Assembly: GCA_965262145.1 (NCBI GenBank)
Contig: OZ253501.1
Location: 4,952,268-5,016,267, forward strand
Length of the DNA: 64,000 nt
Source of the DNA: Candidatus Latescibacterota bacterium
GTDB taxonomy: Bacteria > Latescibacterota > UBA2968
Direction of reading: 5' to 3'
Shown here: one piece after another, positions 15,506 through 33,929 of the stretch
How positions within the stretch are numbered: the stretch's first letter is position 1
Layout: each line of letters opens with the position of its first letter
Position numbers and translations under genes: made by a program
The notes under the pieces: generated by a model
Told to the model about the DNA's origin: nothing
The model's input: the letters and a program-made list of their open reading frames with translations, nothing else
The model's database searches: none

Positions 15506-15901
15506 ATGTTGATCTCGATTGACCATCACAATGGCATACCCGTTTTTCGCCAGATTATCGACCAGGTGAAATTCCACGTAGTCAGCGGGCTACTCGCGCC
15601 GGGTGACGAGTTGCCCTCAACCCGTGCATTATCGGGGCAACTGGGACTCAACCCAATGACAGTGAGCAAGGCATATAGCTTATTGGAAGCAGAGGGGTTA
15701 GTCGAGCGGCGACGCGGGCGACCTTTAACCGTAAAACCACTACGCGATCAAATCGTACACGCTGAAAAACTGGCACAACTCAAACCACAACTCACGCAGT
15801 TAGCAACAATGGTACGGCAGTTGGGGGTTGATCGGGCGGAAGTCGTAGATCTTTTCACATCCATCTTAGATGCCCTGGAGGAAGATAATCATGATACCTG
15901 A
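15506..15901 (+). CDS. GntR family regulator, YtrA subfamily
   Basis: PVFRQI..LPSTRALS..LNPMTVSKAY; short (131 aa); followed by an ABC ATPase start. Confidence 0.9.
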   Translation: MLISIDHHNGIPVFRQIIDQVKFHVVSGLLAPGDELPSTRALSGQLGLNPMTVSKAYSLLEAEGLVERRRGRPLTVKPLRDQIVHAEKLAQLKPQLTQLATMVRQLGVDRAEVVDLFTSILDALEEDNHDT

Positions 15902-16355
15902 TCACACACCTGTATTTGAAGCCACATCTTTGACCAAAAAGTTCGGTGACACCATAGCTCTCAATTCCGTAACACTCTCTCTTGGAGCGCATCGCGTAAT
16001 TGGATTGATCGGACGAAATGGCGGAGGCAAAACCACCTTAATCCGGCACATGATGAGAATACTTTGTGTCCTTGGGTGGTGGGTCGTTCTTTTACCGATG
16101 TTGCAGTGGTTGCAAGTCAAATATGACCTGTGTGGATTTCAAAGAACACGGCAACAGATAGGTGGAATAGTTTTTCTGATCCTAGTCCTGATTTTGTCTT
16201 TTGTATTCACTGGTTTTACCAGTCTGATGCGTGTCCGATATCCCGATTTGATGCTGACCTATGAAGCACCGATCCTTCTCGTCTCTTTTATTCTCTTGCA
16301 ATGGTTTCTTTTGGCTCGGCTCAAACGGTATTATGCGACACAGGACCTGGTTTAG
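15891..16355 (+). pseudogene. Internally deleted ABC transporter: ATPase N-terminus fused to a permease C-terminus
   Basis: Walker A GRNGGGKTT, then three hydrophobic helices with no Q-loop, LSGGQ or Walker B. Confidence 0.7.
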
Positions 16356-16615
16356 GTCAAAAGTCTTCTTAATTGTGCCTAAAAACAAATAATAGGACTA
16401 AAAGCATAATTATGCCAAAATTATGCATATAAGCATTTGTTTTTTCATCGGTTTTTTAATTTTTTATACACGTTAATAGCGTTTAATAACTTTTGGAGCA
16501 GGTTATCCATTCTTGTGACTTCACCATATCATTCTTCAAAGGTCGTAAGTTTTTGCTGCAAATGAACAGAACAGCGCTTACGGCCTTTTGTTTTACCTCT
16601 GGACGTATAACGTAT

Positions 16616-19600
16616 ATGTTTGAAAACGGCACAATTCTCGACAACAAATATCAAATCCAGGCGCACCTGGGAACCGGGGGCATGGGCGAAGTCTATCGGG
16701 TTTTGGACTTGGAACAATCCCGGCCTTGCGCGCTCAAAATTTTGAATAAAATGATGGATCAGAAGGTTGTGCATCGCCGTTTTCACAGAGAATTTCAAGT
16801 GTCGAACAGGTTCCAGCACCCGCGCCTGGTACGCACATACACCTGGGGCTTTGCCGAAGGTCGCCCCTATTTTACAATGGACTATTTACCCGGCAAGACA
16901 TTGGAAAAAATTATTGCCGATCAAGCACTATTAGCGCGATTCCGGGCGTCTCACTTTTTTGCTCTGGTACAACAACTTGCCGAGGGAATGGCCTATATCC
17001 ACGCGCAGGGAGCGGTGCATCGCGATCTCAAACCATCCAATATTATGGTTTTGGAAACAGAAGAGGGGATTGAGACCACAATTCTGGATATGGGACTGGC
17101 GAAACTCCGGCATCTGCATAGCGGTTCCATTACGCAGACGGGCGCAGCTATTGGTACGGCAGAATATATGTCGCCAGAGCAAGGTAAGGGATTGTGCGTG
17201 GATCATCGGTCTGATTTGTATGCATTGGGCATAATTTTATATGAGATGCTCACGGGCGCACCGCCCTTTTCTGGACAAAACCCAGTATCCGTTATTCTTA
17301 AGCATATTCGAGAGTCACCGCCACCAATGAGCGAAGTCAATATCGCGGTTCCCGAACAGATAAAACAAATTGTGTTGAAGTTGCTGGCAAAGGGGGCTGT
17401 TGATCGTTTTCAGTCGGCAGAGGAAGTGTTGCGTGCCTTACCATCGGAGTTTGTGCTACCAGGTGACGAGCAGCGCGATGTGCATAGAAAAGTCATGCGC
17501 CCACAATTTGTCGGGCGCGAATCCGAAATGAAGATACTGGGGGCGATGTTACAGGATGTACAGGCTGGCAAACAGCGCGTAGTTCTGATCTCCGGTGAGG
17601 CAGGGGTGGGAAAATCGAGATTGGTTGAAGAACTATTGGGCGATGCTCTGATCCATGACTTTCTGTGTTTGAAAGGCGCATCTCAGGAAGAGGGTGGACA
17701 AATATACGGTGCGTTGATCAGTGCTTTTCAAGGGACGGTGGATTTGATGGCGGGGTTGCCCGATTCAGCAGAAATGGACAAGTTTTCTGTTATGGAGCGT
17801 TGGTTGCAGGTGCTAAAACGTCTGCGACAGAAAAAACCCATTGTGTTGTGTTTGGAAGACATTCAATGGCTGGATGAATTGACATTGGAATTTTTACAGT
17901 ATGTGTTGCGCGATCCAGACCCGTGTCCATTTTTGTTATGCCTGACCTGTCGATGGTCTAACCTGGAACCTATTTCAGAGGAAATTGAAAAATTTATACA
18001 CAGCAATGCATTTTCTGAAGCGACCCTAATCCAGTTGAAAAATCTACCACAAAAAGAAGTGGAGTATTTAGCAGCATCAATGTTGGGTGAAAGATCCATA
18101 CCGCGAGATGCATTACAATCCCTGTTCAGTGAAACAGGTGGGCAACCCCTGTTTGTCGTGGAGGCTATGAGGACGCTGGTGAATGCCGATGTGGTTCGGC
18201 AGAATATATCCGGCCATTGGCAATGGGGAGAATTTCCCGAAACTTTGTTGTCCGATGATTTTTCAGAGGTTTTGTACAGGCGCATAGCTACCCTGCCTGC
18301 TGTACAACAGCGGGTGCTGGAATACGCCTGTGTTTTTCTGGGCGATTTTTCTTTTGAATTATTGGCTGCTATTTGGCGCGGTGATGAGTTGGAACTACTG
18401 GATATACTGGACGAATTGATTGCAGAAGGACTTTTGGCTACTTGTGGAGAGGATGAAGAGCGGTATCGATTTTCACAGGAGTTGTGTCGGCGTGCAGTTT
18501 ACAATCGTATGCAAAATGTACGCCAACGGCTGTTGCACCGAGAAATTGGAAATGCTTTGGAAAAGACGGAACATGCAGAAGAACTGACGGAAGAATTGGC
18601 GGATCATTTCGCGGCAGCAGGAGAACAAGATAAAGCTGTGAAATATATGCGTCGGGCAGGCAAAAAGGCATTGGAGACACAAGCGTACCGCCAGGCATTG
18701 AGACGGTTTGAAACTGTGCAAGACTGGGCAATGTATGACGCTTTTGTATCACCTGCAGATGCAATCAACTTTTTGTGCGATTATGCAGATGCGCTACGCA
18801 ATTGTGGTCAGCACAATAGCGCACTGGAACTTTTAGATGAGGCACAGGCGTTATTGCCCGATGATCGGAACGATTTGAAAGCGCGTATTTTGTGGATTGA
18901 AGGTGGTATTCATAGTTTAGACCGACGTGGAGGCATTGCAGAAGAATGTATGCTGGAGGCATTGCGGCTTTATCGTGAACTGGGTGATTTTGAAGGTGAA
19001 ATTCAGGCGTTGGGAGGTTTGGCTTATTTGTGCGATGTGTCTGGACGGCACAAAGATGCTATTGCATATATGCGTCGAGAAATAGAGAAACGTAGTATGC
19101 TGGGAGACCCGCAAAATGAGGCTTTTATACAAGGACGAGAAGGTCAAGCTGCATTGGTGGGATTTCGATTTGAGACAGCTAAGGGATATTTGGAAACTGC
19201 TGTAAAGACATTTAGGCAACTTGGGCTTGCGCATCATCGCCTTTGGGCACTTAATTTACTTCAAAGAGTTTATTTTTATCTGGGTGAACGTGATCGTGCG
19301 GAAGGAGTTTGCCATGAAGTCATTGGTGAGTGGCAGAAGCGAGGCGTTGTTTACTGGGAGGCAGTGAATTGCCTCTATCTGGGAGAATTGGCTCTGGAAC
19401 GCGGTGATTTTGCCGAGGCATTGGAATATGCCGAGACCTCAGCAGAGCGATTTTTGGAAACACCGCGAAAAGATTATGTCTATCGCGCTTATGCGATTGC
19501 AGCAACGGCTGCTGCGAGAATGAGAGATACAGAAGTAGCACTTGAATGGGCAAAAAAAGCCAGTGAAAGTGTGCAACAAACATCCGAAATGTACACGGGC

Positions 19601-21430
19601 ATATTGCCTCTGGTGTATTGTGGTATTGGTGTTGCTTTTGCTCAAGCAGAGCGGATTTCTGAGGCTGAAGAGGTGTTTGAGCAGGCTATTGAATGCCGAA
19701 GAGAATCCAAAGGCGACCACTGGGCGCGTGCGCTGCTGATGGTAGGAGAATTTTATCTCGAGCGAAATGATATGGCAAAAGCTCAAGAGTATCTTGAAGC
19801 AGCAAAACAGGCGTTTGGAGAAATGGAAATGTCCTATTTTTTGGAGAAAACAGAGGTGTTATTAAATCAATTATCTCGCGACAAAGATGATCGCGGCAAG
19901 GATGCCGCTCCAACCCCCAGTTCTGAGATTTTAGTTGATACGTTGTCTGTTGATCGCTTGCGCTTGCTCTACGATGTGAGCCGGGAATTGACCACAGAAC
20001 GCGATGTCAAAGTGCTATTGGATCGGACTTTGGGTAATTTGTTGGCTGTCTATCCAGCAGAGCGGGTGCTTGTTGCAATTAAAAATGAGACCCAAAAAGG
20101 CTTTGTGATTGATGCGGTGCGCCACCACAATTTAGAATCGGATGATGCAGAAGAATTGAGTCGAGGTATTATTCGTCGGGTTATCGAAACAAATGAACCC
20201 GTTTTGAGCATTGATGCCCAGACAGACGACAGGATCAATCGGTATCAGAGCGTGATAGACTACAATATTCGGTCTGTATTGTGTGTGCCTGTATTCCATC
20301 TGAACGAAGGTGTGATGGGTGCCCTATATGTAGATCATCGCGGCCTGGGCAACGCATTTTCTCAAGAAGATCAGACGTTTTTACAGTCATTTGCAAATCT
20401 GGTGGGGGTTGCACTGGTCAATGCGAGGATGTACGAACAATTGGAAGAGAAAGCACAATATTTGCAGCAAGAGGTCGAAAGACGGTACCAGCTTGGCGAT
20501 CTGTTTGGGCAAAGTGATGCCATGCAGGCCATCTACTATCTTATCGAACGCGCTTCACAAAGTGATATTCCCGTGCTTGTGCAGGGCGAAACAGGTACGG
20601 GCAAAGAATTGGCTGCGCGTGCCATACACTACAATAGTACACGCAAAGACCAGCGATTTTTGTCGCAAAATTGCGCTGCTCTTTCACCAGAGTTGTTGCA
20701 AAGTGAGTTGTTTGGGCACAAAAAAGGGGCGTTTACTGGGGCGACTGAAAATCACATTGGGATTTTTGAGGAGGCCAATGGAGGCACGGTCTTTTTAGAT
20801 GAAATCGGAGATGCCTCGCCACAGTTGCAAAGGAGTTTGTTGCGGGTGTTGCAAGAAGGAGAGATCCGGCGCGTGGGAGAAACAGAGGATCGGGCAGTGG
20901 ATGTACGCATTATTGCAGCAACCAATCGAGACTTAAAACAGGAAGTTGAGAAAGGCTCGTTCCGCGAAGATTTGTATTATCGGTTGGATGTGATTCAGAT
21001 CGATATGCCGCCTTTGCGAGAACGCATGGAAGATGTGCCGTTACTGGCCAAACATCTGCTCATTCGGGCAAGAGAAGATGCAAACAAGTCGGTTGGCGGG
21101 CTGACAGTGGGTGCGATAAAAGCCCTCACAAGTCACGACTGGCCGGGTAATGTGCGCGAGTTGGAAAATAAAATTCGACGTGCGGTTGTATTGGCAGAAG
21201 AAGATAGTGAAATTACGCCCGATTTGTTTTCAGAAACTGTCGGTCACGCGGTGTCAGATGTCTCTGTCGAATACCAGGGGCGTTTACAAGACCATGTTCA
21301 GGAGTATGAGAAACGGTTGATTCGAGACGCACTCGATAAATACGAGGGCAATATTACCCATACAGCCAGAAAGTTGGGGATGACACGCGCTGGCCTACAA
21401 AAAAAGATCAATCGTTTGAGGTTGAGATAG
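16616..21430 (+). CDS. Ser/Thr kinase - AAA ATPase - TPR - GAF - sigma54 enhancer-binding protein with Fis HTH
   Basis: GTGGMGEV, HRDLKPSN, GEAGVGKS, TPR helices, GAF SVLCVP, GETGTGKE, GAFTGA, WPGNVREL, C-terminal HTH; exact start codon uncertain. Confidence 0.92.
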   Translation: MFENGTILDNKYQIQAHLGTGGMGEVYRVLDLEQSRPCALKILNKMMDQKVVHRRFHREFQVSNRFQHPRLVRTYTWGFAEGRPYFTMDYLPGKTLEKIIADQALLARFRASHFFALVQQLAEGMAYIHAQGAVHRDLKPSNIMVLETEEGIETTILDMGLAKLRHLHSGSITQTGAAIGTAEYMSPEQGKGLCVDHRSDLYALGIILYEMLTGAPPFSGQNPVSVILKHIRESPPPMSEVNIAVPEQIKQIVLKLLAKGAVDRFQSAEEVLRALPSEFVLPGDEQRDVHRKVMRPQFVGRESEMKILGAMLQDVQAGKQRVVLISGEAGVGKSRLVEELLGDALIHDFLCLKGASQEEGGQIYGALISAFQGTVDLMAGLPDSAEMDKFSVMERWLQVLKRLRQKKPIVLCLEDIQWLDELTLEFLQYVLRDPDPCPFLLCLTCRWSNLEPISEEIEKFIHSNAFSEATLIQLKNLPQKEVEYLAASMLGERSIPRDALQSLFSETGGQPLFVVEAMRTLVNADVVRQNISGHWQWGEFPETLLSDDFSEVLYRRIATLPAVQQRVLEYACVFLGDFSFELLAAIWRGDELELLDILDELIAEGLLATCGEDEERYRFSQELCRRAVYNRMQNVRQRLLHREIGNALEKTEHAEELTEELADHFAAAGEQDKAVKYMRRAGKKALETQAYRQALRRFETVQDWAMYDAFVSPADAINFLCDYADALRNCGQHNSALELLDEAQALLPDDRNDLKARILWIEGGIHSLDRRGGIAEECMLEALRLYRELGDFEGEIQALGGLAYLCDVSGRHKDAIAYMRREIEKRSMLGDPQNEAFIQGREGQAALVGFRFETAKGYLETAVKTFRQLGLAHHRLWALNLLQRVYFYLGERDRAEGVCHEVIGEWQKRGVVYWEAVNCLYLGELALERGDFAEALEYAETSAERFLETPRKDYVYRAYAIAATAAARMRDTEVALEWAKKASESVQQTSEMYTGILPLVYCGIGVAFAQAERISEAEEVFEQAIECRRESKGDHWARALLMVGEFYLERNDMAKAQEYLEAAKQAFGEMEMSYFLEKTEVLLNQLSRDKDDRGKDAAPTPSSEILVDTLSVDRLRLLYDVSRELTTERDVKVLLDRTLGNLLAVYPAERVLVAIKNETQKGFVIDAVRHHNLESDDAEELSRGIIRRVIETNEPVLSIDAQTDDRINRYQSVIDYNIRSVLCVPVFHLNEGVMGALYVDHRGLGNAFSQEDQTFLQSFANLVGVALVNARMYEQLEEKAQYLQQEVERRYQLGDLFGQSDAMQAIYYLIERASQSDIPVLVQGETGTGKELAARAIHYNSTRKDQRFLSQNCAALSPELLQSELFGHKKGAFTGATENHIGIFEEANGGTVFLDEIGDASPQLQRSLLRVLQEGEIRRVGETEDRAVDVRIIAATNRDLKQEVEKGSFREDLYYRLDVIQIDMPPLRERMEDVPLLAKHLLIRAREDANKSVGGLTVGAIKALTSHDWPGNVRELENKIRRAVVLAEEDSEITPDLFSETVGHAVSDVSVEYQGRLQDHVQEYEKRLIRDALDKYEGNITHTARKLGMTRAGLQKKINRLRLR

Positions 21431-21441
21431 ATATTAAACAG

Positions 21442-21561
21442 GTGCATCCTGCTGTATGCAGTGCATCCCGGCGTATGCACTTTGTTTATCTTTATATGAA
21501 TCAGGTATTTATGCATAATTTTTTTGAATAAACGATTATAAGTGCATCCTGGCGTATGCAC
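21442..21561. promoter_or_regulatory. Three palindromic upstream activator sites (GTGCAT-N8-ATGCAC) with an IHF-like site
   Basis: Copies at 21442-21461, 21461-21480 and 21542-21561; AATCAGGTATTTA (WATCAR-N4-TTR) at 21499-21511. Confidence 0.8.
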
Positions 21562-21668
21562 TTACGCCTGAATCTCGCAGATGTAGCACAAATAATTCTT
21601 AAATTTTATCCCATTGTTTTACAAGCACTTGGTAATACTCAAGTGCTTTTTTTTTTCTGAAACGATTT

Positions 21669-21685
21669 TAGGCACGCATCTTGCG
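21669..21685 (+). promoter_or_regulatory. Sigma-54 (-24/-12) promoter
   Basis: taGGCACgcatcTTGCg with exact GG-N10-GC spacing, downstream of enhancer sites and an EBP gene. Confidence 0.85.
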
Positions 21686-21741
21686 ATATAAAAAGGGCAA
21701 GACAGTGAACACATAACATTTTTGTATTGAAGGAGGATAAC

Positions 21742-21921
21742 ATGAAGACTCGGTGCAAGTTGACTTTGATCAATGGAAGGATAGACATAGAGGGGGATAT
21801 TCAAATATATCGATTCACGAATAGCCTTGAAATAGGGGGATGTCCATCTGGTGCGCCGGTTGTTCCGCCCGTGCCCTTTCCCGCTGATGACGATTGGGAC
21901 GATTTTGATCAAGCTGAGTAA
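21742..21921 (+). CDS. 59-aa candidate RiPP precursor peptide
   Basis: AAGGAGG RBS; first gene after the sigma54 promoter, directly upstream of a radical SAM/SPASM gene; MKTRCKLTLINGRIDIEGDIQIYRFTNSLEIGGCPSGAPVVPPVPFPADDDWDDFDQAE. Confidence 0.7.
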   Translation: MKTRCKLTLINGRIDIEGDIQIYRFTNSLEIGGCPSGAPVVPPVPFPADDDWDDFDQAE

Positions 21922-21949
21922 ATCATCTCTGTTCGGAGGAGTGCGTACT

Positions 21950-23386
21950 ATGCTGTGCATCCAGAAATGCGACATGCATCTTTTTCAAACTGAAGAGCAA
22001 AATCAGCCGATTGTCTATCAGGTTGAGACGGGTCTATTTTTTAAGCTGGATACCTTTTTCCAGTCGATTTTAGCGTGTTGTGAGGGTTTGTCTGCTACCC
22101 AGGTTGTCCAGATGCTGACCGATCAATATGAAGCAGAAGAAATTGTCGAGGCCATTGGGGAATTGGCCCAGGTGGGGTTGATTTCGGATGGTGCTCTACC
22201 TGTGGTATCCAATGTGCCGACGACAGAAGGGGTAGCAGCCTGTGGGGTATCGCAGACAGATCGTTTGCAGGTGTCGTTGCACGTTTCGCATACGTGCAAT
22301 ATCCAATGTGCTTATTGCTTTGCTCACGGCGGGGATTATGGCGGCAAGGCCATGTTGATGCAACCGGACGTTGCCGAGCAAGCGATACGCTGGATCATCA
22401 CCGAGGCCCAGGCATTGGGGCGGTGCCAGATTGATTTTTTTGGCGGTGAGCCGCTCTTGAACTTTCCGTTGCTGTGCAAGCTGGTGCCATTTGCCAAATC
22501 CCTATCAGCGCGATTGGGTGTGCAGGTTGGTTTTGGCATTGTGACCAATGGCACGTTGTTGACCGACGAGATGAAGCAATTTTTGATCGATGAAAAGTTT
22601 CAAATTAAGGTCAGCCTGGATGGTGGGCGCAACACACAGGATCGCATTCGCAAGTTTCACAATGGTTCTGGCACTTATGATGTTGTGGCAAAGAATGTAA
22701 AAAAACTGACGGCTGAGGCACCTGAGCGCGTGTACCTGCAAGCCGTTATGACAGCGTATGACCTGGACGAGGATCAAATTGCCAATGAGTTGCGTTCTCT
22801 GGGTACTGAAAACGCGCTCATTGGCCCGGCTGTTGTTTCCCCCGATGCACCATACTCCATTCGAGAAGAACACATACCCGCATTGAAACAACAAATTCAC
22901 AAGCGAAGCCGGCGTGCGCTCAAAGCCATTTTAAGTGGTGAAGAGGGTGAAGATGAAGAGTTTGACCCAAGGATTCAAAAACTTTTGACACGCAAAAAAT
23001 CTTGTCACGGGTGTCTCGGCGGCAAGCAGTATTTGGCTGTTGCAGCAGATGGGTCAATTTATTTTTGCTCGAGTTTGGCCGATGCGCCCGAGTTTAAGAT
23101 GGGTGATGTGTTTGCGGGTATTGATCGCGAAAAACAGCAGTATTTTGACACTCAGTTCAATGTCAATAATCGGCCTGAGTGCAAAACGTGCTGGGCGCGC
23201 AATTTATGTGGTGGCGGATGTCTTTGGGAGGCGCGGACGACAACGGATGATCCGATGTCTCCCAACCCGGTTTATTGTGAACAGACGCGCTATCGCTATG
23301 AACTGGCAATGGAAATGTGTATGGAAATAGCAGAAGCAGATGCGTCTTTATTGCAGCGACGTTATGACCTGGAAGTGGTATCATAA
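21950..23386 (+). CDS. Radical SAM/SPASM peptide maturase with N-terminal RRE-like domain
   Basis: CNIQCAYC, FFGGEPL, TNGTL, SLDG; SPASM C..G.IYFC and CKTCWARNLCGGGC..C; N-terminal extension resembling a PqqD/RRE; GGAGG RBS. Confidence 0.92.
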   Translation: MLCIQKCDMHLFQTEEQNQPIVYQVETGLFFKLDTFFQSILACCEGLSATQVVQMLTDQYEAEEIVEAIGELAQVGLISDGALPVVSNVPTTEGVAACGVSQTDRLQVSLHVSHTCNIQCAYCFAHGGDYGGKAMLMQPDVAEQAIRWIITEAQALGRCQIDFFGGEPLLNFPLLCKLVPFAKSLSARLGVQVGFGIVTNGTLLTDEMKQFLIDEKFQIKVSLDGGRNTQDRIRKFHNGSGTYDVVAKNVKKLTAEAPERVYLQAVMTAYDLDEDQIANELRSLGTENALIGPAVVSPDAPYSIREEHIPALKQQIHKRSRRALKAILSGEEGEDEEFDPRIQKLLTRKKSCHGCLGGKQYLAVAADGSIYFCSSLADAPEFKMGDVFAGIDREKQQYFDTQFNVNNRPECKTCWARNLCGGGCLWEARTTTDDPMSPNPVYCEQTRYRYELAMEMCMEIAEADASLLQRRYDLEVVS

Positions 23387-23445
23387 GCAGAGAAGTTAGG
23401 AATGCATAAAATTTCAGACTATAATTGCAAGGAAAGGAGAGACAA

Positions 23446-24096
23446 ATGAAGAAACTTTTATTCATCTTCATATTCACTCTATTCTCGACCGAGATAATTG
23501 CTCAAGGCACAGGCTCTCTGCGCTTATGTGCCGGTGACAATATCATAACATTTGGACTTGCCAATGAGTCGGGAACCGTAGTTAAATCGATAAAAATAAT
23601 TTCTGATACTGAGAAATTTCCCAATTGGTTGCGTGTTAAGGAATCTTTAATTCCTGTAGATTTTATGTCAGGGGCACTTGAGCTATCGCTTCAGATCAAC
23701 GTTGATCAGGGCCATGAAGGCGAAGTTGTCTCCTTGCCACTCATCCTGATAGGTGACAATGGTCATCGTTGGTATGTTGAGCCATTTGCAACCATTGAAG
23801 TCCGCAAAATCACTAAAAACGAGCTACTGCCCAACTTTCCTAACCCTTTCAATCCGGAGACGACGATTAATTATCGTCTTGCCGGAAATACTGATCAAGA
23901 GACTAAGCTTGTTATCTACAATGCTATAGGGCAAGAAATCCGTACTCTTGTTCAAAAAGTTCAACCTGCAGGAGAATATGTGGTGCATTGGGATGGAACC
24001 GACATTCTCGGGCAAAAAGTTTCAAGCGGCATATATATGTATCACCTGACCTCGGGTGATTTTTCCCAGACAAGAAGAATGATGCTTCTCAAATGA
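23446..24096 (+). CDS. Secreted protein with FlgD-Ig / T9SS-type C-terminal sorting domain
   Basis: Signal peptide MKKLLFIFIF; ELLPNFPNPFNPETTINY..IYNAIGQEIRTL..WDG..SGIY..MMLLK. Confidence 0.88.
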   Translation: MKKLLFIFIFTLFSTEIIAQGTGSLRLCAGDNIITFGLANESGTVVKSIKIISDTEKFPNWLRVKESLIPVDFMSGALELSLQINVDQGHEGEVVSLPLILIGDNGHRWYVEPFATIEVRKITKNELLPNFPNPFNPETTINYRLAGNTDQETKLVIYNAIGQEIRTLVQKVQPAGEYVVHWDGTDILGQKVSSGIYMYHLTSGDFSQTRRMMLLK

Positions 24097-24144
24097 CTTG
24101 CTTTCCATAGTTCTTTCAAATGTATTTGATTGGAGATTTAGACT

Positions 24145-25944
24145 ATGAAACATTTGATATACCTGATTATGTGTTTTGTGCTTGCCGCACCGGCAAATAG
24201 CATTGAGTACCATAGTGTGCTCGTGGATGGTTCAGCAGGCATATTGATTGACGGAAGTTTGGCTGATTGGCAAGCCTATAAATTGTCCAGGCAGAAGCTC
24301 GAATATTGGCGATTAATGCCCCATAATAGATCGGGAACGCCAACCACTGATCAAGACCTGTCCGCAACTTTTCAGGTATTTGCAGACACCGATCATATTT
24401 ATTTTGCTATTGTGGTAGTAGATGATGAGGTCGTTTTTGAACGATCAGTCTTTGGACAAAGCTGGTGGGATGATGCGGTCTGGATAGAATTTGACGGGGG
24501 CTACCTTGAGATTACCAAACAAGCCTCTGGTGAAGTGGTTGTTGAAAGTCTATTGGAGGTAGCAGGGAAAAAAATTAGCGTACCCTATCTCTCAGAAGCT
24601 ATAGGTGTTGAAGCAGCAATTTCACAGACGGCATCGGGGTACATAGTCGAAGCAAAAGTGCCGCGTCAGATTGTGCAGATAGATGCTTTTAAAAAAGATT
24701 CGCGTCTGTTATTTAATGTGTCTGTTGTGGATCATGATGTTGCTGGCATACAGGAACATAGACTGTCTCTCGACAAAGATATTTCGTCTTCGGTCTTGCT
24801 TTCTCAGATAATCACTGCACCCTCCTGGAATGAAATTATCCCAGGGCGTCATCCCTCTACCAAGCCCGCCATTTCACCAGCAGGCACGACACATCCCACC
24901 AAATCGGGGTTCAATAATCAGGGGCAATTAGTGATAACCCTTTTGGGAAACACGGCCTCTGATAAACTCGACTTAGCCAAGAGACAAGAGATCAACATAG
25001 CAACCATCCTCGCACAATATCACGCAGCAACAAAGGCTGATAAACCCAATCCGAAGACCTTAATCTGGACGGGAGGGCTTGCCGGCATATTGGCTGTGGG
25101 AGAAGGGAATTATCGGATATTCTCGGATAGATTTCGCGATATCCAGAAAGTTGATGATCCTTATGTGCGGGAGTGGGCAGTGACGCATCATAGAGGGTAT
25201 CAACGCGGTTTCGGAAGAACGACGCTTAAGTTGCCAGATGCCGAAGCCATACGTCGCCTTGAAGAAGCCTTGCAAGTAGCAGACGATGCACAAGACCACG
25301 AATTTTATTTTCAGATCATGAGCAACCTGTACAAAGTGCGGGAAAGGGCACAGTTACCCGTAGATCAAATGCTCGAAAAGGGTATTCGCTATGCCGCGAG
25401 GATTGTGGACCAATCTGGAACCGATAAAATGGGACAATTGGCAGCGACAAATCGCCTCAAGTATCGGCTGTTTTTAGCCCAAAGCCAGCCCTTTGTAAAA
25501 ATCGACGGTCTGCTTGCAAAGCAGGAGCTTTTGAGGTATGCAGAAAATTTTAGTCGCGGTTCTGATGAGCATCTCAATCTGCTCAAGCAAATCGGCAATA
25601 TTTATCGCAAAGTGGGGATGGCTCCAGAGGCTTTAGAATTTTACAAAAAAATCGCAGAACTGGCTCAAACACCTGCGTATGCTGTGGTTGCACGCATAGG
25701 TATGGCACATACGTATATGGATATTGCGAAAAACAGGACTTCAATGGCAAAATTGCGAGAGGCTGAGAAGATTCTGACCAATCCCACAAATTACAATGAG
25801 CGTGCTGTTTTAGCACATCTGCACATGACATTTGTTCGCGCGCATGGGGAGTGGTATGACTACAAAAGAGTCCGTGAGCACCTGAAACTCTTAAATGAGT
25901 ATCTTCCCCCTGATCCTTCCATGCAAGTTAGAACTACCCCATAA
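24145..25944 (+). CDS. Secreted protein with CBM9/DOMON-like sugar-binding domain and TPR repeats
   Basis: Signal peptide; IDGSLADW, IYFAIVVVDD, DAVWIEFD, GYIVEAKVP; C-terminal TPR-like helices. Confidence 0.7.
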   Translation: MKHLIYLIMCFVLAAPANSIEYHSVLVDGSAGILIDGSLADWQAYKLSRQKLEYWRLMPHNRSGTPTTDQDLSATFQVFADTDHIYFAIVVVDDEVVFERSVFGQSWWDDAVWIEFDGGYLEITKQASGEVVVESLLEVAGKKISVPYLSEAIGVEAAISQTASGYIVEAKVPRQIVQIDAFKKDSRLLFNVSVVDHDVAGIQEHRLSLDKDISSSVLLSQIITAPSWNEIIPGRHPSTKPAISPAGTTHPTKSGFNNQGQLVITLLGNTASDKLDLAKRQEINIATILAQYHAATKADKPNPKTLIWTGGLAGILAVGEGNYRIFSDRFRDIQKVDDPYVREWAVTHHRGYQRGFGRTTLKLPDAEAIRRLEEALQVADDAQDHEFYFQIMSNLYKVRERAQLPVDQMLEKGIRYAARIVDQSGTDKMGQLAATNRLKYRLFLAQSQPFVKIDGLLAKQELLRYAENFSRGSDEHLNLLKQIGNIYRKVGMAPEALEFYKKIAELAQTPAYAVVARIGMAHTYMDIAKNRTSMAKLREAEKILTNPTNYNERAVLAHLHMTFVRAHGEWYDYKRVREHLKLLNEYLPPDPSMQVRTTP

Positions 25945-26877
25945 ATATGAGGAGCTTCATAATGAGCAAATACATCCACACTTTGTTTGTTGGCATAAGC
26001 CTTTTGTTGTTTGGAACAAGCGTCTCGTTTGGAGATGATGCAAGCTATAAAAAAAAGCTCCCATTTGGTCCTCCCGAAGCGAATTGTTGGCAAATATGGG
26101 ATTACCCCAATAAGATCTGGTATATTGATTGCGGAGATTTGCCCGAAATCGAAATAGTTGCACAATCACCTCCGACCAGTGAAGATATTTATCACAATGT
26201 AGGTGAACCCTGGTGGCATGTTGATCTATTTGGAAAGCCATATCGCTGGGATTTCTCTACATATCTATGGGAAGAAATACCTGCTTCAGCTATGCCATTG
26301 GCAGTGTATCTTGATCTTGTTCATGGTCAATCAACCACGATTGATTGCGCCCCCAGAGGGACTTCAGCCAATACACGAAAGCGGGATCTTATAGTTTCGA
26401 CTAAACCAATCTTTAATGATCTATTGATTACTTCGATTACAAAAACAAGAGAAAGTACGCCCCATTATGGGCATCATCACACACCCGACAACAATGCCGT
26501 CCTGTGTCGTGGTTCCACGAACTTTGATGATGGTTCAACAAATGACAATGGTGTATTCCAATTTTTTTATCGTGGACCAGAAGCCGCGGGCAGAACGGTT
26601 GTAACTGTAAATTGGAGAGACCCGCGAGACGATGAAACGGGATCGGTGTCCATGACCTTTGAGAACAGACACGATGGCCTGGTAGAAATGACGGGTACTC
26701 TAGCTATGACTTTAACCGGGCATGAGAGAGATGACTTTCATCTCGCCCCAGATATTCATTGGGCCACTTCGACTACAAAGAGCCGTATTGGAAGTCTTGC
26801 TGCACTCTTTTATGCAGAATATGATGAAAAATTGAAGGTGAATGATGGCTCTCTGAGATATGGGGGATTATATGATT

Positions 26878-28710
26878 GAGTCCGCTCCGAAAAGGGTGTA
26901 ATAGAGTGTAATAGAGAGTATAGGTTTTTTGTGAGCGTTGGGTCTGTCTGTGTCGCCTTTGGTGGTGACGTATGGTATTGGGGTCGTGTATAGAGTGCCC
27001 GTGCTTTGCAGGCGTGCTGACGAGGTTACAACGTGCATGTTTGGGTCAACAGGGTGCACCTATTGGGGGGTCTTCATTTGGCTGGGCGAGATAATTCTTG
27101 ATCCTTACCAGATTGATCCATAAACTGCGACACCATGCCCAGACTTGATGGGGCAAAAGCCGACGATAACGCGTTTTACCCCCTGTTGTATGATAGCTCA
27201 ACTGGAAGATGCTGGCCTCAACATTATGGCGTCGATTGCGGATGTGCACAGGCATGTCTTCAATCTGTTTTCGCCGGTGATAGGCAAGGATGTCTTGTTG
27301 GGTAATATATCGCGGCTTCCCTGCGATGAAGAGTTTGTATTTGCCCGGTTTATATTCTTGTGCAAGCTGAATTTCTCCACTGTGTCGATCAATGACTTCA
27401 ACCCCTTCTTCTGTGCGTTCATATATCAAACGTCCCGGTCTGCCTTGTAGCCCACTGTAATAGAATTGCTTGTCCTCTTTGTCGGCATACGCACTGTTGC
27501 AAGCCGCATGGTAAGCCCCATCCATCGACACGTCCGAGACCTGTCCGACCACCTCCTGTGTCCGTTCTATGGCCGGTTGGACAAAAGCGTTATCCGCAGC
27601 CGTTGCCGCTTTGACTTCTACATCCGTGATCAAATTGAGGCCCTCCCCATCACAGGTCTCAGTGAGATTGACACTATATCCCTTGACCTTTTGCACCCCT
27701 TTTCTGCGAAAGGTCGCATCTGGATCATGGACAGACTGTAAGGAGGAAGAAGAAATAGATTGTGATGGCTTGGGAAGCACTGATTTTTCACTGGCGGAGA
27801 CACTGACGGTGTATTGGTCAGAAAAAATACGCACGATGAGACCATATTCATCGCTGTCTTTCTCCTGATAGGCCGCCAACAGTCTGCACAGTAACAAACC
27901 GAGGGCTTCGAGCTTCTCCCCTTTTTCTGCACTGCTGAGTGGATACCCAACCTGATGCGGCTTCACCTTGAGCAAGGCGTCCAAAACCTCGCGGTCTGCT
28001 GCGCATAATCGTTCCTTTGCGCCCTTGTCTAACGAGCCCCAGAACCCTTGTAAGCACCCAATGACCAACTGCAAGCGACAACAGGTGGCAATATTGGCGC
28101 CGATTAACTTGCTGTCCATTCGCACCTGCTGACCCGTCACGCCAAAGACTTTAGCCTGTGTCTTGGTTAAGCTGGAAAACGTCTCCCCAATCAGATTGCG
28201 ACCCCTTTGCAGGCCATAGGCATACAGGGACTGCTTGAACAGATAATACGTCGAAGCCACAGGCACCTCATCCGACAGATTCATCAACCCTAAAGCACGC
28301 ATCACCAAGATGTTGAATCCACACTGCTCAAAAAGTTGCGCATCGCTCCACCCAAAGCCCTCTTTCAAGATCATCATCGACACCAAGCGGCGCACAGAAG
28401 CATTGGGACGGCCTTGCTCACGATCAAACAAGACCGAAAAGACATCTTCATCTATCTTGCAGGTAATATGTGCGTAGAACACATTATGCCAAGCACTCGG
28501 ATCATTCAACTGCGCCTGCTTGCGCCCTTTGAAATGGGACTCAAAACTCGAAAACAGATCCGGTTGGCTTGATGGGGCACTTCTTCTAAACATTGCGATA
28601 CTCCCACAGGATTACTTTATAGGTTATACATCCGTTACGAGGCCACAGCCTCACACACGTAATTTAACTCTTTTTACATAAAAATAAAATCGACTTTTCG
28701 GAGCGGACTC
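26878..28710 (-). mobile_element. Intact insertion sequence (IS1182/IS5-like), 1833 bp
   Basis: Perfect 17-bp TIRs GAGTCCGCTCCGAAAAG; 6-bp target duplication ATGATT at 26872-26877 and 28711-28716. Confidence 0.93.
27046..28593 (-). CDS. DDE transposase (DUF772-like N-terminus)
   Basis: GRP..LKE..WSD, RMDSKLI, DPDATFRRK, MDGAY, RHNVEAS motifs. Confidence 0.9.
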   Translation of the reverse strand: MFRRSAPSSQPDLFSSFESHFKGRKQAQLNDPSAWHNVFYAHITCKIDEDVFSVLFDREQGRPNASVRRLVSMMILKEGFGWSDAQLFEQCGFNILVMRALGLMNLSDEVPVASTYYLFKQSLYAYGLQRGRNLIGETFSSLTKTQAKVFGVTGQQVRMDSKLIGANIATCCRLQLVIGCLQGFWGSLDKGAKERLCAADREVLDALLKVKPHQVGYPLSSAEKGEKLEALGLLLCRLLAAYQEKDSDEYGLIVRIFSDQYTVSVSASEKSVLPKPSQSISSSSLQSVHDPDATFRRKGVQKVKGYSVNLTETCDGEGLNLITDVEVKAATAADNAFVQPAIERTQEVVGQVSDVSMDGAYHAACNSAYADKEDKQFYYSGLQGRPGRLIYERTEEGVEVIDRHSGEIQLAQEYKPGKYKLFIAGKPRYITQQDILAYHRRKQIEDMPVHIRNRRHNVEASIFQLSYHTTGGKTRYRRLLPHQVWAWCRSLWINLVRIKNYLAQPNEDPPIGAPC

Positions 28711-28947
28711 ATGATTACAATGAAACCTGGGCACCACCTCATTGGGGGCATCGGGATGGCAAGAATGTGGATGTTTATCCGACAGCACCGGATAGTAGCA
28801 AGTGGGAGTTTCTCAAGGATAAGATAGAGGAACTCGGCAGCACCTTCATAGATAAGAGCAAAGTATCTCCTAAACACCTTCACTTCGAAGAATAAGAAAG
28901 GTCTGTTCTCCAACATTGAAACACACAACTGGAAAGGATAAATTACA

Positions 28948-29862
28948 ATGAAAGCGATTTTATATGTGGCAATGGTGCTGTTTCTTATAACGAGTTCAGC
29001 CATGGCAGAGCGAAAGACGCTCGACAAAATACATCGTCAAATACCCGTTGGCGCGTCAGAAGTGCTTGTGCCCAACCCAAAGAGACAAGAGGGCTATGAC
29101 TTGGTTATCAAACCCCATGAGTTAAAATATGATGATAAGACGAGCCTTTACACCTATACGTATTGGGAAGATGATAGCACCTCTGTGAAACTGCTTTATG
29201 AGCCATCCAACCGGCTTGATGTGACAGTTGCTTGTGCTGTGGTCTATGATAGAGAATCGGACGAATACACCTATACTTATCACATCCTGAATAGCAAGAA
29301 CAGTGTACAGCCTTTACGTATATTTGCTGTAGATATAGACCGTAGCCTGGTAATTCGGACTGAATCTGATCCTTGGTATTATTACTCTACGAATGAGCCA
29401 CCTCCCGGTTCACCCAGATGGGTATTTTGGGGCTCAATGGGTAGGGATGTGTCTCCAGGAGGGTCAATTTCTTTGACGCTTGTGAGCAAACAAGGACCTG
29501 TGATCGCGACCTGCTACTCCAAAGGCCGTGCACGAACTTTTGATCACCCTGTTATTGTCAATGCTTTGGCCTCTCCTCCAGCAAATAAAGAGGGTGTTAC
29601 AGGTCAAACGCTTGGTCCTGGTATTTTGAATGCAGACAATGCACAAGCGCAGGTCGAGGCATTTCTCCAGATTGCTCAGACCTGGGGGTGGGTCAGCACA
29701 GATAAGAAAGGCGCGGCACTTGTTCACCTTTCTAAAGGATTGGATAGAAATACCTTCAACGCCTTAAAAAACGAACTGAATCCCAATCCTGGTGAGGTTG
29801 AAAGTGAGATGGCTGCGTTCTTAGAGCACTTTGCCAATAAGCAGGGATTTGTGGATGATTAG
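28948..29862 (+). CDS. Secreted hypothetical protein
   Basis: Signal peptide ending SSAMA; AAGGA RBS; no family recognised. Confidence 0.7.
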   Translation: MKAILYVAMVLFLITSSAMAERKTLDKIHRQIPVGASEVLVPNPKRQEGYDLVIKPHELKYDDKTSLYTYTYWEDDSTSVKLLYEPSNRLDVTVACAVVYDRESDEYTYTYHILNSKNSVQPLRIFAVDIDRSLVIRTESDPWYYYSTNEPPPGSPRWVFWGSMGRDVSPGGSISLTLVSKQGPVIATCYSKGRARTFDHPVIVNALASPPANKEGVTGQTLGPGILNADNAQAQVEAFLQIAQTWGWVSTDKKGAALVHLSKGLDRNTFNALKNELNPNPGEVESEMAAFLEHFANKQGFVDD

Positions 29863-29959
29863 CATCTTCTGCATTGGGGCAGCATACCGCCTCGCGCAGC
29901 AGAATCAAGCCAGCGTAAAAAGATAATGAAGAACGCCTATTATCGAGATATTTGCTTAA

Positions 29960-30010
29960 AAACGGCATCCAAATGGGGATGATAACGCCCTGTTAGATGC
30001 CGTTTATTTT
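29960..30010 (+). terminator. Probable intrinsic terminator
   Basis: AAACGGCATC...GATGCCGTTT stem followed by a T-rich tract. Confidence 0.55.
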
Positions 30011-30060
30011 ACTTTTTTGGTGTGGGATTCTCGACAGATTGTTGGTGATGGGAGGAATAT

Positions 30061-31038
30061 ATCACTCTAAAATCCGGCCTCGATAAATGGCCACTCATTG
30101 GACAGCACCCCTCACTCTTAGACGTACAAAAGCGCGCGTGCCGCGTGGCGAATAGCGAATTGCCCATCAACATCAGCGGAGAGACTGGCACGGGCAAGGA
30201 ATTGCTCGCCCGTTATATTCACGGAATTAGCCACCGCAACAAGGGACCATTTGTAACCGTTGACTGCGGTCTGCTCTCTTATGAGATAGCGCGCAGCGAG
30301 TTATTTGGACATGTTCGAGGTGCTTTTACTGGCGCCATTGAAACGCGCCGCGGACTGGTTGAATCTGCTCAAGGCGGTACGCTATTCCTCGATGAAGTGG
30401 GCGAATTGCCTGCCAACCTTCAGCTGCAATTGCTTCGCCTGGTACAGGAACAGGAATTTCGCCGCATAGGCGAAGTATCCATGCGCCGATCCAACGTGCG
30501 CCTGATCACTGCGACACACTGCAATTTGAAAAAAATGATGCGAACAGGAACTTTCCGAGAAGATCTCTATTACCGCTTAAATGTCGTACCCCTCCATATG
30601 CCGCCCCTGCGGAAGCGACTGAGCGATTTGCCACTTTTGGTCACGCATTTTTGCAAAAGTATGGAAGGATACACACGCGCGTTTTCCCTCGAAGTAATTC
30701 AAAGGATGTCGCATTATGCCTGGCCAGGCAATGTTCGGGAACTACAACACGAAGTCGCCCGATTGATGGTCATGAGCGAAGGTAAAATTATCCGTGTATC
30801 CGACCTGCACCCTCGCATTCGAGGGTCCAAAGCCGAGGTTGATGTATTTGACCTCCCGTTTAAGGAAGCCAGACAACTGGCGAACAACCGGTTTATGCGG
30901 GAGTATATTCATAGAGCTTTACAGCGAACACAGGGCAATGTATCGCAAGCAGCGCGAGAATGCGGGATTGGCCGGCAATATTTCCAATTGCGTATGTCTG
31001 AACACGGTCTAAGGTCGGCATTTTACAAGGAGAAATAA
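30061..31038 (+). CDS. Sigma54 enhancer-binding protein lacking a sensor domain
   Basis: GETGTGKE, GAFTGA, FLDEVG, WPGNVREL, Fis HTH; homology (LIGQHP) extends upstream of the GTG at 30145 to an ATC at 30061 behind GGAGG. Confidence 0.85.
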   Translation: MTLKSGLDKWPLIGQHPSLLDVQKRACRVANSELPINISGETGTGKELLARYIHGISHRNKGPFVTVDCGLLSYEIARSELFGHVRGAFTGAIETRRGLVESAQGGTLFLDEVGELPANLQLQLLRLVQEQEFRRIGEVSMRRSNVRLITATHCNLKKMMRTGTFREDLYYRLNVVPLHMPPLRKRLSDLPLLVTHFCKSMEGYTRAFSLEVIQRMSHYAWPGNVRELQHEVARLMVMSEGKIIRVSDLHPRIRGSKAEVDVFDLPFKEARQLANNRFMREYIHRALQRTQGNVSQAARECGIGRQYFQLRMSEHGLRSAFYKEK

Positions 31039-31144: not shown

Positions 31145-31334
31145 CTTGATCGGCACAGCTTCCCAAATCATAGTGGGGCCAAGCTGTCCATCTTCGAGTA
31201 TATGGAAGAATGGTATAATCCACACCGCAGGCATTCTGCATTCAGGTATCAGTCACCCATAACCTATGAAAGGCTGATGGCACAGGATGCTTAGGCTGAA
31301 TCTTCTACACTATCCACTAAAACGAGGTGCCTTC
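31145..31334 (+). mobile_element. IS3-family remnant (transposase C-terminus plus right end)
   Basis: Reads LDRHSFPNHSGAKLSIFEYMEEWYNPHRRHSAFRYQSPITYER, then an IS3-like end ...TCCACTAAAACGAGGTGCCTTCA. Confidence 0.75.
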
Positions 31335-33904: not shown

Positions 33905-33929
33905 CAGCGGGCCTCGCTCCCTACAGAAA

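Follow-up and report, generated by a model that had tools for sequence, protein, structure and literature searches.

A putative thioether-type peptide module under a dedicated sigma-54 circuit, joined to a separable cassette of secreted proteins in a Candidatus Latescibacterota genome

Do genes that stand side by side between two sigma-54 activators make up one system? The question is raised by a run of plus-strand genes at 16.5-31 kb of a 64,000-nucleotide (nt) stretch of contig OZ253501.1 (assembly GCA_965262145.1, Candidatus Latescibacterota bacterium; positions 4,952,268 to 5,016,267), the whole of which is called the window here. The run comprises the gene of a giant activator (enhancer-binding protein 1, EBP1), a 520-bp intergenic region, an open reading frame (ORF) of 59 amino acids (aa), the gene of a radical S-adenosylmethionine (rSAM) enzyme, genes of a protein with a sorting tail of the type IX secretion system (T9SS) and of a CBM9+TPR protein, ORFs of 310 aa and 304 aa, and the gene of a second activator, EBP2. 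The initial annotation, made from the letters alone, took all of this for one regulated surface or antagonism system in which the rSAM enzyme crosslinks the peptide or the secreted proteins. With a probability of roughly 0.6, we read the locus as a composite, in which a module like those of peptides synthesised ribosomally and modified post-translationally (RiPPs), a separable cassette of secreted proteins and EBP2 are brought together in one sigma-54 unit, the peptide being probably of the thioether type.

The locus lies in a single-contig genome of 6.18 Mb, which was scanned as a whole for palindromes, insertion sequence (IS) elements and paralogues. We searched 168 Latescibacterota genomes for the rSAM family, fetched 36 related loci and compared them with the window by tblastn; genomes and loci carry our G and L numbers where they have to be told apart, and the count of 26 loci for the genus includes the window. 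It turned out that the order EBP1, peptide, rSAM enzyme, one half of the gene order that had been proposed, is kept across loci. An EBP1-type gene stands upstream of the rSAM gene in 34 of the 36 related loci, the two exceptions being a locus that is ended by the contig edge and a locus in G021 with a broken rSAM gene and no EBP1. All 26 genus loci have the sigma-54 promoter and the peptide gene, with 21-29 nt between peptide and rSAM gene in genus loci and 304 nt in one locus, and related peptides beside the rSAM gene are also found in families f2 and f3. The features of this part of the window are as follows.

16616..21430, plus strand: EBP1, giant sigma-54 activator (Pfam Pkinase, AAA_16, TPR, GAF, Sigma54_activat, HTH_8)
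21442-21461, 21461-21480 and 21542-21561: three 20-bp enhancer palindromes (upstream activating sequences), GTGCATCC-N4-G(T)ATGCA(C/G) (sequence reading)
21623..21658, plus strand: hairpin with a 10-bp stem and a T-run, between enhancers and promoter (terminator scan)
21671..21685, plus strand: sigma-54 (-24/-12) promoter GGCACGcatcTTGCg, GGCACG-N4-TTGC (same-position match in 26 of 26 genus loci)
21742..21921, plus strand: precursor-like peptide, 59 aa (ORF, conserved family)
21950..23386, plus strand: peptide maturase with predicted RiPP recognition element (RRE), radical SAM and SPASM parts, 478 aa (Pfam, NCBIfam, match to CteB)

The rSAM family is well delimited by its scores. Relatives share 41-93% identity with the window's enzyme (347-1018 bits; two half-length fragments score lower), and the scores then fall to at most 251 bits, where SCIFF maturases begin. 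Strong matches occur in about 26 of the 168 Latescibacterota genomes, which belong to three families of one class. All family members found come from Latescibacterota or from records with the label Gemmatimonadota, which some database relatives carry. In a wider contig search, 3 of 80 loci among the matches listed are family members, and most of the others are SCIFF maturases of Firmicutes. Genomes of the genus hold 2-3 paralogous rSAM copies each; the second copy in the window's genome (G000:C1:917793-919220) is 93% identical to the first. The EBP1 sensor and the rSAM family occur together in 16 genus genomes, and neither was found in the remaining 5 (97-99% complete). The genus loci split into 12 of type A, 13 of type B and one that is neither. 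Type A loci have EBP2 downstream and a common small ABC-fragment ORF upstream, while type B loci have a gene of about 300 aa in place of EBP2.

The peptide of the window consists of a leader with the motif K-L-T-L-I-N-G, Cys34, a Pro-rich stretch V-P-P-x-P-F-P and an acidic tail DDDWDDFDQ, and it contains 2 Cys in its 59 residues. Across an alignment of 32 sequences, M1, N11, G18 and C34 are invariant and L7, G12, I20, P42, P45 and P47 nearly so. Three subfamilies have the leader (K/R)-L-x-L-(I/V)-N-G and the Cys in common; the sequence C-x6-V-P-(P/L)-x-P-F-P followed by an Asp-rich W-D-D-F tail is typical for the genus, C-x-W-P-x-F-P-x-L-P-P-P for f2 and T-L-S-C-x-P-x-(F/W/Y)-P for f3. A profile search extended the family to 88 database clusters, 87 of which keep the Cys. 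None of the 88 is named beyond "hypothetical protein" or contains a Pfam domain, and the window peptide itself matches neither Pfam nor NCBIfam. No signal-peptide-like N-terminus was seen in it by eye.

As for the enzyme, Pfam Radical_SAM is matched with 54 bits (cut-off 29.5) and Fer4_12 also passes, and SPASM reaches 19.5 bits, under its cut-off of 21.5. The cysteines of the radical SAM motif CxxxCxxC (C116, C120, C123) are invariant in 27 sequences, as are the SPASM cysteines (n=7; C355, C373, C411, C414, C420, C424, C443), and the PqqD/RRE domain PF05402 is precomputed for 12 of the 120 homologues listed. The five best NCBIfam matches are QhpD (TIGR03906; the top match, aligned full length, 261.4 bits, cut-off 453), SCIFF maturase (TIGR03974; 260.8 bits, cut-off 425), nif11 rSAM (252 bits, cut-off 519), not_ScfB and PapB (NF047865; 226.4 bits, cut-off 340). 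The closest solved structure by profile search is CteB (5wgg; E 2e-89), which aligns with residues 9-454, through the SPASM domain. Thioether (S-C) formation is described for CteB, Tte1186, SCIFF enzymes, QhpD and PapB in the consulted sections of the review PMC10114670, which do not cover nif11 rSAM and not_ScfB. On the strength of these relatives, the enzyme most likely links the invariant Cys to a residue of the Pro/aromatic-rich core by one intramolecular thioether.

We modelled the enzyme together with three 4Fe-4S clusters, SAM and the peptide, along with three controls. The complex reached an ipSAE of 0.87 versus 0.00 for the best of the three controls, where the mark applied to this score is reached by 58 of 80 solved complexes and by 2 of 110 mismatched pairs. 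The runs share at least 44% of their contacts, and the predicted local distance difference test (pLDDT) score of the partner is at least 48. The model brings peptide residues 5-15 and 18-27 into contact with the enzyme at residues 21, 28-37 and 68-75 (together the predicted RRE), 345-348 and 454-478. It supports the view that the peptide, not another protein, is the substrate of the enzyme; of the two substrates that had been proposed for crosslinking, the peptide thus gains support from a model with controls and the secreted proteins have none.

Some members of the rSAM family differ from this pattern. The f2 and f3 loci L023, L026, L027, L029, L125, L126 and L127 have another RRE-rSAM/SPASM gene downstream of the first (directly so in most), with 24-33% identity between the two, which suggests a two-enzyme maturation there. 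The peptide gene of L125 (G077) is apparently frameshifted, with leader and core in different frames, and the rSAM gene of L027 (G021) is broken at about residue 138 with no EBP1 upstream; both copies are possibly decaying.

The regulator EBP1 has 1604-1645 aa, depending on the start. Its residue numbers are given here from the TTG at 16493, and the start is probably the ATG at 16616 because orthologues align only from about residue 37-42. It is composed of a Ser/Thr kinase (53-313), an AAA_16/STAND NTPase (338-477), TPR (about 960-1120), a GAF domain (1170-1308), a sigma-54 AAA+ domain with GAFTGA (1338-1503; Pfam Sigma54_activat, E 4e-73) and a Fis-type helix-turn-helix (HTH; 1604-1641). HRDLKPSN and the Gly-rich loop of the kinase as well as GAFTGA can be read in the translation, and the protein is below the cut-off of all NCBIfam equivalogs. 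Downstream of it, the perfect palindrome GTGCAT-N8-ATGCAC is present at two places, which are the only ones in the 6.18-Mb genome, and the three enhancer positions are kept across the 26 aligned genus loci. The intergenic regions of these loci align throughout, with enhancers, an AT-rich stretch, the hairpin with its T-run and the promoter. The hairpin at 21623..21658, kept in all 26 of them and also in loci that have the cassette only, is probably the terminator of the EBP1 transcript. The kinase-ATPase-TPR-GAF activator, the enhancers, the -24/-12 promoter and the 59-aa peptide beside an RRE-rSAM/SPASM enzyme had all been recognised in the initial annotation, and the domain matches, the palindromes and the conservation of the peptide bear them out, so that its description of a sigma-54-driven locus with a dedicated activator stands.

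Enhancers and regulators also correspond in sequence. Type A loci pair enhancers GTGCATCC (GTGCAT)...ATGCAC with the EBP1 HTH helix TRAGLQKK, and type B loci pair GTGTAT...TACAC with TRVGLHKK or xRxSLYRK. Since the enhancer half-sites co-vary with the HTH helix, each EBP1 paralogue appears to recognise only its own enhancers. In a tree, the sensor parts of EBP1 fall cleanly into types A and B, which is not so for the rSAM genes. The two EBP1 paralogues of the window's genome differ most in TPR (77-83% nucleotide identity vs 85-93% in the kinase part). In the nucleotide tree of the rSAM genes, A and B copies pair by genome in several genomes, and A-B identity averages 91.1% within a genome vs 89.1% between genomes, a small effect; gene conversion between the paralogous rSAM genes is possible.

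EBP1-like genes also occur apart from the peptide. In f2 genomes without the rSAM family (L137-L142), such a gene and a promoter GGTACG-N5-TTGC precede secreted proteins of 817-865 aa or a sensorless EBP2-like activator; this giant type of regulator would therefore control several kinds of operon in this order.

The second half of the run contains the cassette of secreted proteins, an IS element and EBP2.

23402..23421, plus strand: remnant start (MHKISD...) of a gene of about 300 aa (by comparison with L013 and L109; also in G006)
23446..24096, plus strand: small secreted protein with a T9SS type A sorting domain (FlgD_ig-like), 217-223 aa (Pfam, NCBIfam)
24145..25944, plus strand: secreted CBM9-like + TPR protein, 599 aa (CBM9_1 34.7 bits, cut-off 23.4; TPR matches weak)
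25962..26876, plus strand: 5' part, about 300 codons, of the gene of a putative Ig-like + LAS/M74 (MepA-like) metallopeptidase (homologue residues 1-300)
26876..28711, minus strand: IS element, 1836 bp, with terminal inverted repeats TGAGTCCGCTCCGAAAAG (18 bp) and TGAT flanking both sides (ends read from sequence)
27046-28593, minus strand: IS transposase ORF, 515 aa (Pfam DUF772, 39 bits)
28712..28895, plus strand: 3' part of the peptidase gene with PHxxHRDGxxVD and HLH motifs (homologue residues 298-359, at 28710-28892)
28948..29862, plus strand: 304-aa protein, last cassette gene (no family)
29960..30018, plus strand: hairpin with a 10-bp stem, 26-nt loop and T-rich run (upstream of EBP2, kept in orthologous loci)
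30094..31038, plus strand: EBP2, sensorless (PspF-like) sigma-54 activator with AAA+ and HTH_8, 297 aa (Pfam)

The first cassette protein, likely starting at the ATG at 23446 (MKKLLF), matches FlgD_ig with 47 bits and the sorting-domain family TIGR04183 with 36.4 bits (cut-off 23), and Pfam Por_Secre_tail with 24.6 bits, under the cut-off of 27. Elsewhere in the genome, the best match to the T9SS sortase PorU is a 1905-aa ORF (G000:C1:4187008-4191954; 279 bits, cut-off 420), and several other ORFs have sorting-domain-like ends. Full-length copies of the CBM9-TPR protein, 69-73% identical, are found in G017, G019 and G011. The metallopeptidase is 310 aa as an ORF in the window, against 359-361 aa in full-length homologues. 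Neither the window protein nor a full-length homologue has a direct Pfam match; 18 of 46 aligned homologues match Peptidase_M74, and the columns of the motifs H-x-x-H-R-x-G-x-x-V-D and H-x-H are invariant or nearly so in the alignment. Modelled at full length (pLDDT 78.8), the homologue shows an additional beta-rich part at its N-terminus and a C-terminal domain similar to Hedgehog N-domains (TM-score 0.53-0.61 over about 130 columns), which we take to have the LAS zinc-peptidase fold; by sequence, the homologue gave only chance matches to the PDB (E at least 0.3).

The IS element splits this gene, and the metal-binding motifs are left in the detached 3' piece. Its transposase scores 82 bits for IS1182 (NF033551; cut-off 270). 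The genome contains 13 copies, in 5 of which, the window's included, the transposase is at least 99.8% identical to the window's, with about 96% in the other 8, which suggests that the element was recently active. The last cassette protein, of 304 aa, has no Pfam or NCBIfam match and only unnamed clusters in the ESM Atlas; its 37 database clusters are all at least 60% identical, and its model is of low confidence (pLDDT 55.6, predicted TM-score 0.36), in which a helix at the N-terminus is followed by a beta part and a helical end. Read by eye, the translations of the secreted proteins begin with hydrophobic, signal-peptide-like N-termini and that of the enzyme does not. The labels first given to the T9SS/FlgD-tail protein, the CBM9-TPR protein and the secreted protein without a family agree with these results, and that of the MepA-like peptidase holds by way of its homologues, for a gene that has no Pfam match of its own and is split. 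The statement that all genes are co-oriented has to be corrected, as the IS with its minus-strand transposase had been overlooked.

How firmly is the cassette linked to the peptide? The genes of the T9SS-tail, CBM9-TPR and peptidase proteins are present in none of the 36 other rSAM loci and the 304-aa gene in one (L016 of G006); type B and f2/f3 loci never carry the cassette. The four genes occur in the same order in G017, G019 and G011 and partly in G001, with 2-3 tandem copies of the 304-aa gene in the sister-species cassettes, and the rSAM family and EBP1 were not found in these four species of the genus. Homologous enhancers, the same hairpin and a promoter TGGCACACATCTTGC precede the cassettes of G017, G019 and G011; that of G001 has no such promoter region, and its CBM9-TPR gene is truncated. 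The claim of one system is not upheld by this distribution, since enzyme and peptide do without the secreted genes in 35 other loci and the cassette stands alone in four species. Around the three cassettes with the promoter (L133-L135), we observed a PAS-type histidine kinase, a REC-sigma-54 activator, two small membrane proteins and one or two MacB/FtsX permeases; the HTH of the REC-sigma-54 activator (MTRSGLQKK) resembles that of EBP1.

The junctions between the two halves record their common history. In G017, codons 1-10 of the peptide join the T9SS-tail gene's ribosome-binding site, and shorter pieces remain in G019 and G011. In the window, the rSAM stop is followed by the first 6-7 codons of the gene of about 300 aa, which merge with the same ribosome-binding site. 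Both junctions recur in G006, where the 304-aa gene comes next, and in G012 only the 3' end of the 304-aa gene is left, fused to EBP2. The gene of about 300 aa, which follows the rSAM gene in the paralogous type B loci and has no Pfam or NCBIfam match, is presumably a methyltransferase, judging from an EFGSG motif as in SAM-dependent methyltransferases. Given these remnants, the window-like arrangement is ancestral for the type A locus, and a recent insertion of the secreted genes, which we also considered, is rejected. The idea of unity keeps this much, that the joint arrangement is old in the genus and not a one-off insertion. By comparison of the loci, the type A arrangement was trimmed several times, with one group losing the peptide/rSAM pair instead; the two halves have their promoter in common by descent, and each survives alone.

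Whether one transcript covers both halves depends on what lies between and behind them. Between the stop codon of the rSAM gene and the T9SS-tail ATG there are 59 nt, in which the terminator scan lists nothing. Behind the cassette, the hairpin at 29960-30018, with a 10-bp stem and a T-run, corresponds to the terminator that had been noted at first; it is absent from the list of the consensus terminator scan. The sensorless activator EBP2 is present as described (Sigma54_activat E 5.5e-60, profile positions 19-168; GAFTGA in the translation) and has no canonical in-frame start before its AAA+ domain. Its orthologues begin with MGEIYQSKKSGL.KWPLIGQ, from an ATG whose frame differs from that of the AAA+ domain in this genome and in G006 and G018; expression of EBP2 is therefore uncertain here. 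The stretch after this ATG (window 30040-30145) is 2 nt shorter and includes an A-run. The frame change could be real or a homopolymer artefact shared by long-read assemblies. Two f2 loci have an EBP2-like sensorless activator immediately behind an EBP1-like gene and a sigma-54 promoter, which suggests a cascade from EBP1 to EBP2 into which the peptide/rSAM pair was inserted.

In conclusion, the composite locus may work as follows. Some cue would trigger the kinase/STAND/TPR/GAF sensor of EBP1, which would bind the three palindromic enhancers by its Fis-type HTH and activate the -24/-12 promoter. The promoter would drive the precursor of about 60 aa and the RRE-radical SAM-SPASM enzyme, whose RRE would hold the peptide by the K-L-x-L-I-N-G leader while a thioether is made from Cys34. 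Here, transcription would go on into the secreted cassette as far as the IS, with the hairpin at 29960-30018 and EBP2 following. The cassette, composed of the T9SS-tailed, CBM9-TPR, Ig+LAS/M74 murein-endopeptidase-like and 304-aa proteins, with the peptidase broken here by the IS, would have joined behind the rSAM gene in the genus in place of the gene of about 300 aa (probably a methyltransferase), and EBP2, behind its hairpin, is probably the second tier of a cascade.

Several results weigh against this reading. The enzyme is under the curated cut-off of every named NCBIfam family, and the thioether is deduced from relatives of only 28-35% identity. The acidic tail of the genus peptides is absent from f2 and f3, and the acceptor residue is not nameable. 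The complex job used ligands and purpose-built alignments, unlike its calibration, and a similar leader-RRE complex, that of CteB, is solved, so that the pass shows likeness and not binding. There is no exporter or leader peptidase in the window, as had been stated for a peptidase-ABC exporter, and none is conserved across the related loci. A Peptidase_S8-DUF1611 gene is found downstream in 3 of 36 loci (L017, L114, L024), and an ABC exporter in the f2 locus L024 and its orthologue L123. The window's genome has S8-DUF1611 paralogues elsewhere, and its nearest ABC-exporter matches are only 29-32% identical; processing and export by unlinked genes are therefore possible. As to regulation, EBP1-like genes of family f2 are present in 13 of 13 genomes of one genus and the rSAM family in only 4 of 15, so the regulator is not exclusive to the peptide system. 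The first canonical in-frame start of EBP2, the GTG at 30145, is already within the AAA+ domain, and the IS may block read-through. RNA contigs from four metatranscriptome runs of three studies hold only fragments 90-99% like EBP1, rSAM, IS and EBP2; such contigs cannot show starts, strand or level, may include carried-over DNA and say nothing on parts they do not cover. One RNA contig joins 20938 to 22125 with AAAG between.

The same evidence bears on what else the locus could be. Modified peptide and cassette might cooperate after all as one integrated module, the peptide as a signal or adaptor in a surface or antagonism function, with the endopeptidase as effector and the 304-aa protein as its periplasmic immunity partner. 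The ancestral joint arrangement in the type A locus, with its remnants in G006, G012 and the G017 group, and the 59-nt junction with no listed terminator would suit such a module, and so would the 304-aa gene, which G006 keeps by itself and which other genomes have in 2-3 copies next to the peptidase gene, a pattern similar to that of immunity genes that are orphaned or duplicated. Yet in 35 loci enzyme and peptide have no cassette gene save the 304-aa gene in L016, four cassette-bearing species yielded neither the rSAM family nor EBP1, type B and f2/f3 loci never have the cassette, and the peptidase gene is broken in the window itself, so we regard this as quite unlikely. Very improbable, close to negligible, is a cross-linking of the secreted proteins themselves, in the way that QhpD acts on QhpC. 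The adjacency of the genes in the window and the place of QhpD among the top NCBIfam matches (261 bits) are what speaks for it; that score is far under the cut-off of 453, the proteins have signal-peptide-like N-termini and the enzyme has none, the K-L-x-L-I-N-G motif was not seen by eye in their translations, the enzyme occurs in 35 loci without them, and the complex model puts the leader of the 59-aa peptide on the RRE.

Two further alternatives accept the peptide and change its chemistry or its role. The enzyme could introduce a C-C cyclophane, a C-O link or an epimerisation, with the Cys serving otherwise. The consulted sections of PMC10114670 report C-C and ether links for rSAM-SPASM enzymes too, the cyclophane families YhhB and FxsB are among the weaker NCBIfam matches, and most family members have aromatic residues near the Cys. 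On the other side, QhpD, SCIFF maturase and PapB, thioether-forming according to the same sections, are among the five best matches, no core residue other than the Cys is invariant in all three divergent subfamilies, and the window core CPSGAPVV has no aromatic residue next to its Cys; a product without a thioether is unlikely in our view. It is rather doubtful, a little more so, that the peptide is an intracellular factor, be it the precursor of a cofactor or a ligand or anti-activator that the TPR/STAND part of EBP1 would sense in a feedback loop. This would agree with the lack of a conserved exporter or leader peptidase, the N-terminus of the peptide, in which nothing like a signal peptide was seen, the constant company of its own regulator and the divergence of TPR between the genome's two EBP1 paralogues (77-83% vs 85-93% in the kinase part). 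It agrees less with the f2 EBP1-like regulators that exist without a peptide, or with the S8-DUF1611 genes elsewhere in the genome and the ABC-exporter matches (29-32% identical), by which unlinked processing and export are possible. Apart from these, we give a small chance to a bolder idea, that the peptides are cognate signals of the neighbouring EBP1s: TPR/STAND would sense the modified single-Cys peptide or its absence, and EBP1, binding only its own enhancer type, would with EBP2 switch on secreted cell-wall-active cassettes. If true, this would be an undescribed kind of peptide-based communication or antagonism control in an uncultured phylum.

Some ORFs around the run were also noted. 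Upstream, at window 15506-16355, there is an overlap between a 131-aa GntR-type regulator and an ORF of 161 aa that is ABC-ATPase-like in its first 60 residues or so only (Pfam positions 1-33 of 137) and may be a gene fragment; this ABC-fragment ORF marks the orthologous type A locus in other species. Downstream, two adjacent paralogues of 460 and 416 aa (31310-33943, minus strand) have an EcoRII C-terminal restriction endonuclease domain, one with a weak EcoRII-N match, and a 427-aa ORF is next (33930-35213).

On the reading of a composite locus, the results define a new precursor family (88 clusters, one invariant Cys, Pro-rich core) and a new rSAM-SPASM subfamily in a phylum without cultured members. 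Peptide and enzyme are ready for heterologous expression, and their practical value is that of a lead rather than a result. The locus is also a clear example of a RiPP-like operon under its own dedicated sigma-54 activator, in which enhancer and DNA-binding helix have co-diverged between paralogues of one genome, and the fusion, loss and IS disruption of the cassette illustrate the ways in which accessory operons become joined to such circuits and leave them again. The locus also cautions that adjacency in one genome should not be read as one system.

Among the known systems, the regulators belong beside NtrC/NifA-type EBPs, with which EBP1 and EBP2 share the sigma-54 AAA+ domain, GAFTGA and HTH_8, and the locus the enhancers and the -24/-12 promoter; EBP2 is sensorless like PspF, whereas EBP1 adds an N-terminal Ser/Thr kinase, a STAND NTPase and TPR before the GAF domain. 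The same front end of kinase, AAA_16 and TPR is found in the TOMM system kinase/cyclase fusion (TIGR03903), a regulator family that takes its name from a RiPP system and may sit beside RiPP genes. EBP1 matches it with 276 bits over the kinase part, under the cut-off of 705, and its output is a sigma-54 activator with HTH, not a cyclase. Sigma-54 control of natural-product genes is published for polyketide and non-ribosomal peptide genes (PMC7910581, in the sections consulted). The literature consulted does not describe a RiPP operon whose dedicated activator is of the kinase-STAND-TPR-GAF kind, in line with the first impression that the arrangement is not a described cluster, and no curated family claims the peptide or the enzyme; the supplementary tables of biosynthetic gene clusters of PMC11832590 may list such clusters as "ranthipeptide". 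The cassette peptidase has the H-x-x-H-R-x-G-x-x-V-D and H-x-H motifs and the Hedgehog-like modelled domain of MepA/LAS enzymes (Peptidase_M74), but it is below Pfam detection, has an extra N-terminal beta-rich part and is split here.

The enzyme itself can be compared with several thioether families. QhpD, the top and full-length match, is a thioether-forming rSAM-SPASM enzyme; the score is 261 bits vs 453, and instead of an enzyme subunit the partner here is a leader-bearing peptide of 59 aa. No quinohemoprotein amine dehydrogenase family was met among the scanned proteins of the window and related loci, a scan that took in part of the neighbouring ORFs and no genome search for qhp genes. 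With PapB and freyrasin-type systems (NF047865), it has a related rSAM-SPASM core in common, and the genus peptides are Asp-rich; PapB links Asp to Cys. Here, however, the score is 226 bits vs 340, there is no repeated Cys-X3-Asp motif, and the Asp-rich tail is missing in f2 and f3. Likeness to SCIFF (CteB, Tte1186; TIGR03974) covers the predicted N-terminal RRE, the radical SAM core and seven-Cys SPASM domain, the full-length alignment of CteB, a precursor gene directly upstream, a leader predicted on the RRE and no conserved exporter or protease linked. It differs in the score (261 bits vs 425, 28-35% identity), in its occurrence only in records labelled Latescibacterota or Gemmatimonadota under a dedicated sigma-54 activator, and in the precursor, which in SCIFF has six Cys in about 45 residues and here one invariant Cys, a Pro-rich core, an acidic tail and no NCBIfam match. 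Judged by these comparisons, the pair appears to work like SCIFF/ranthipeptide systems, while it falls outside curated SCIFF, QhpD and PapB membership and has a different precursor family; our reading is that peptide and enzyme represent a new thioether-type RiPP family under a dedicated sigma-54 circuit.

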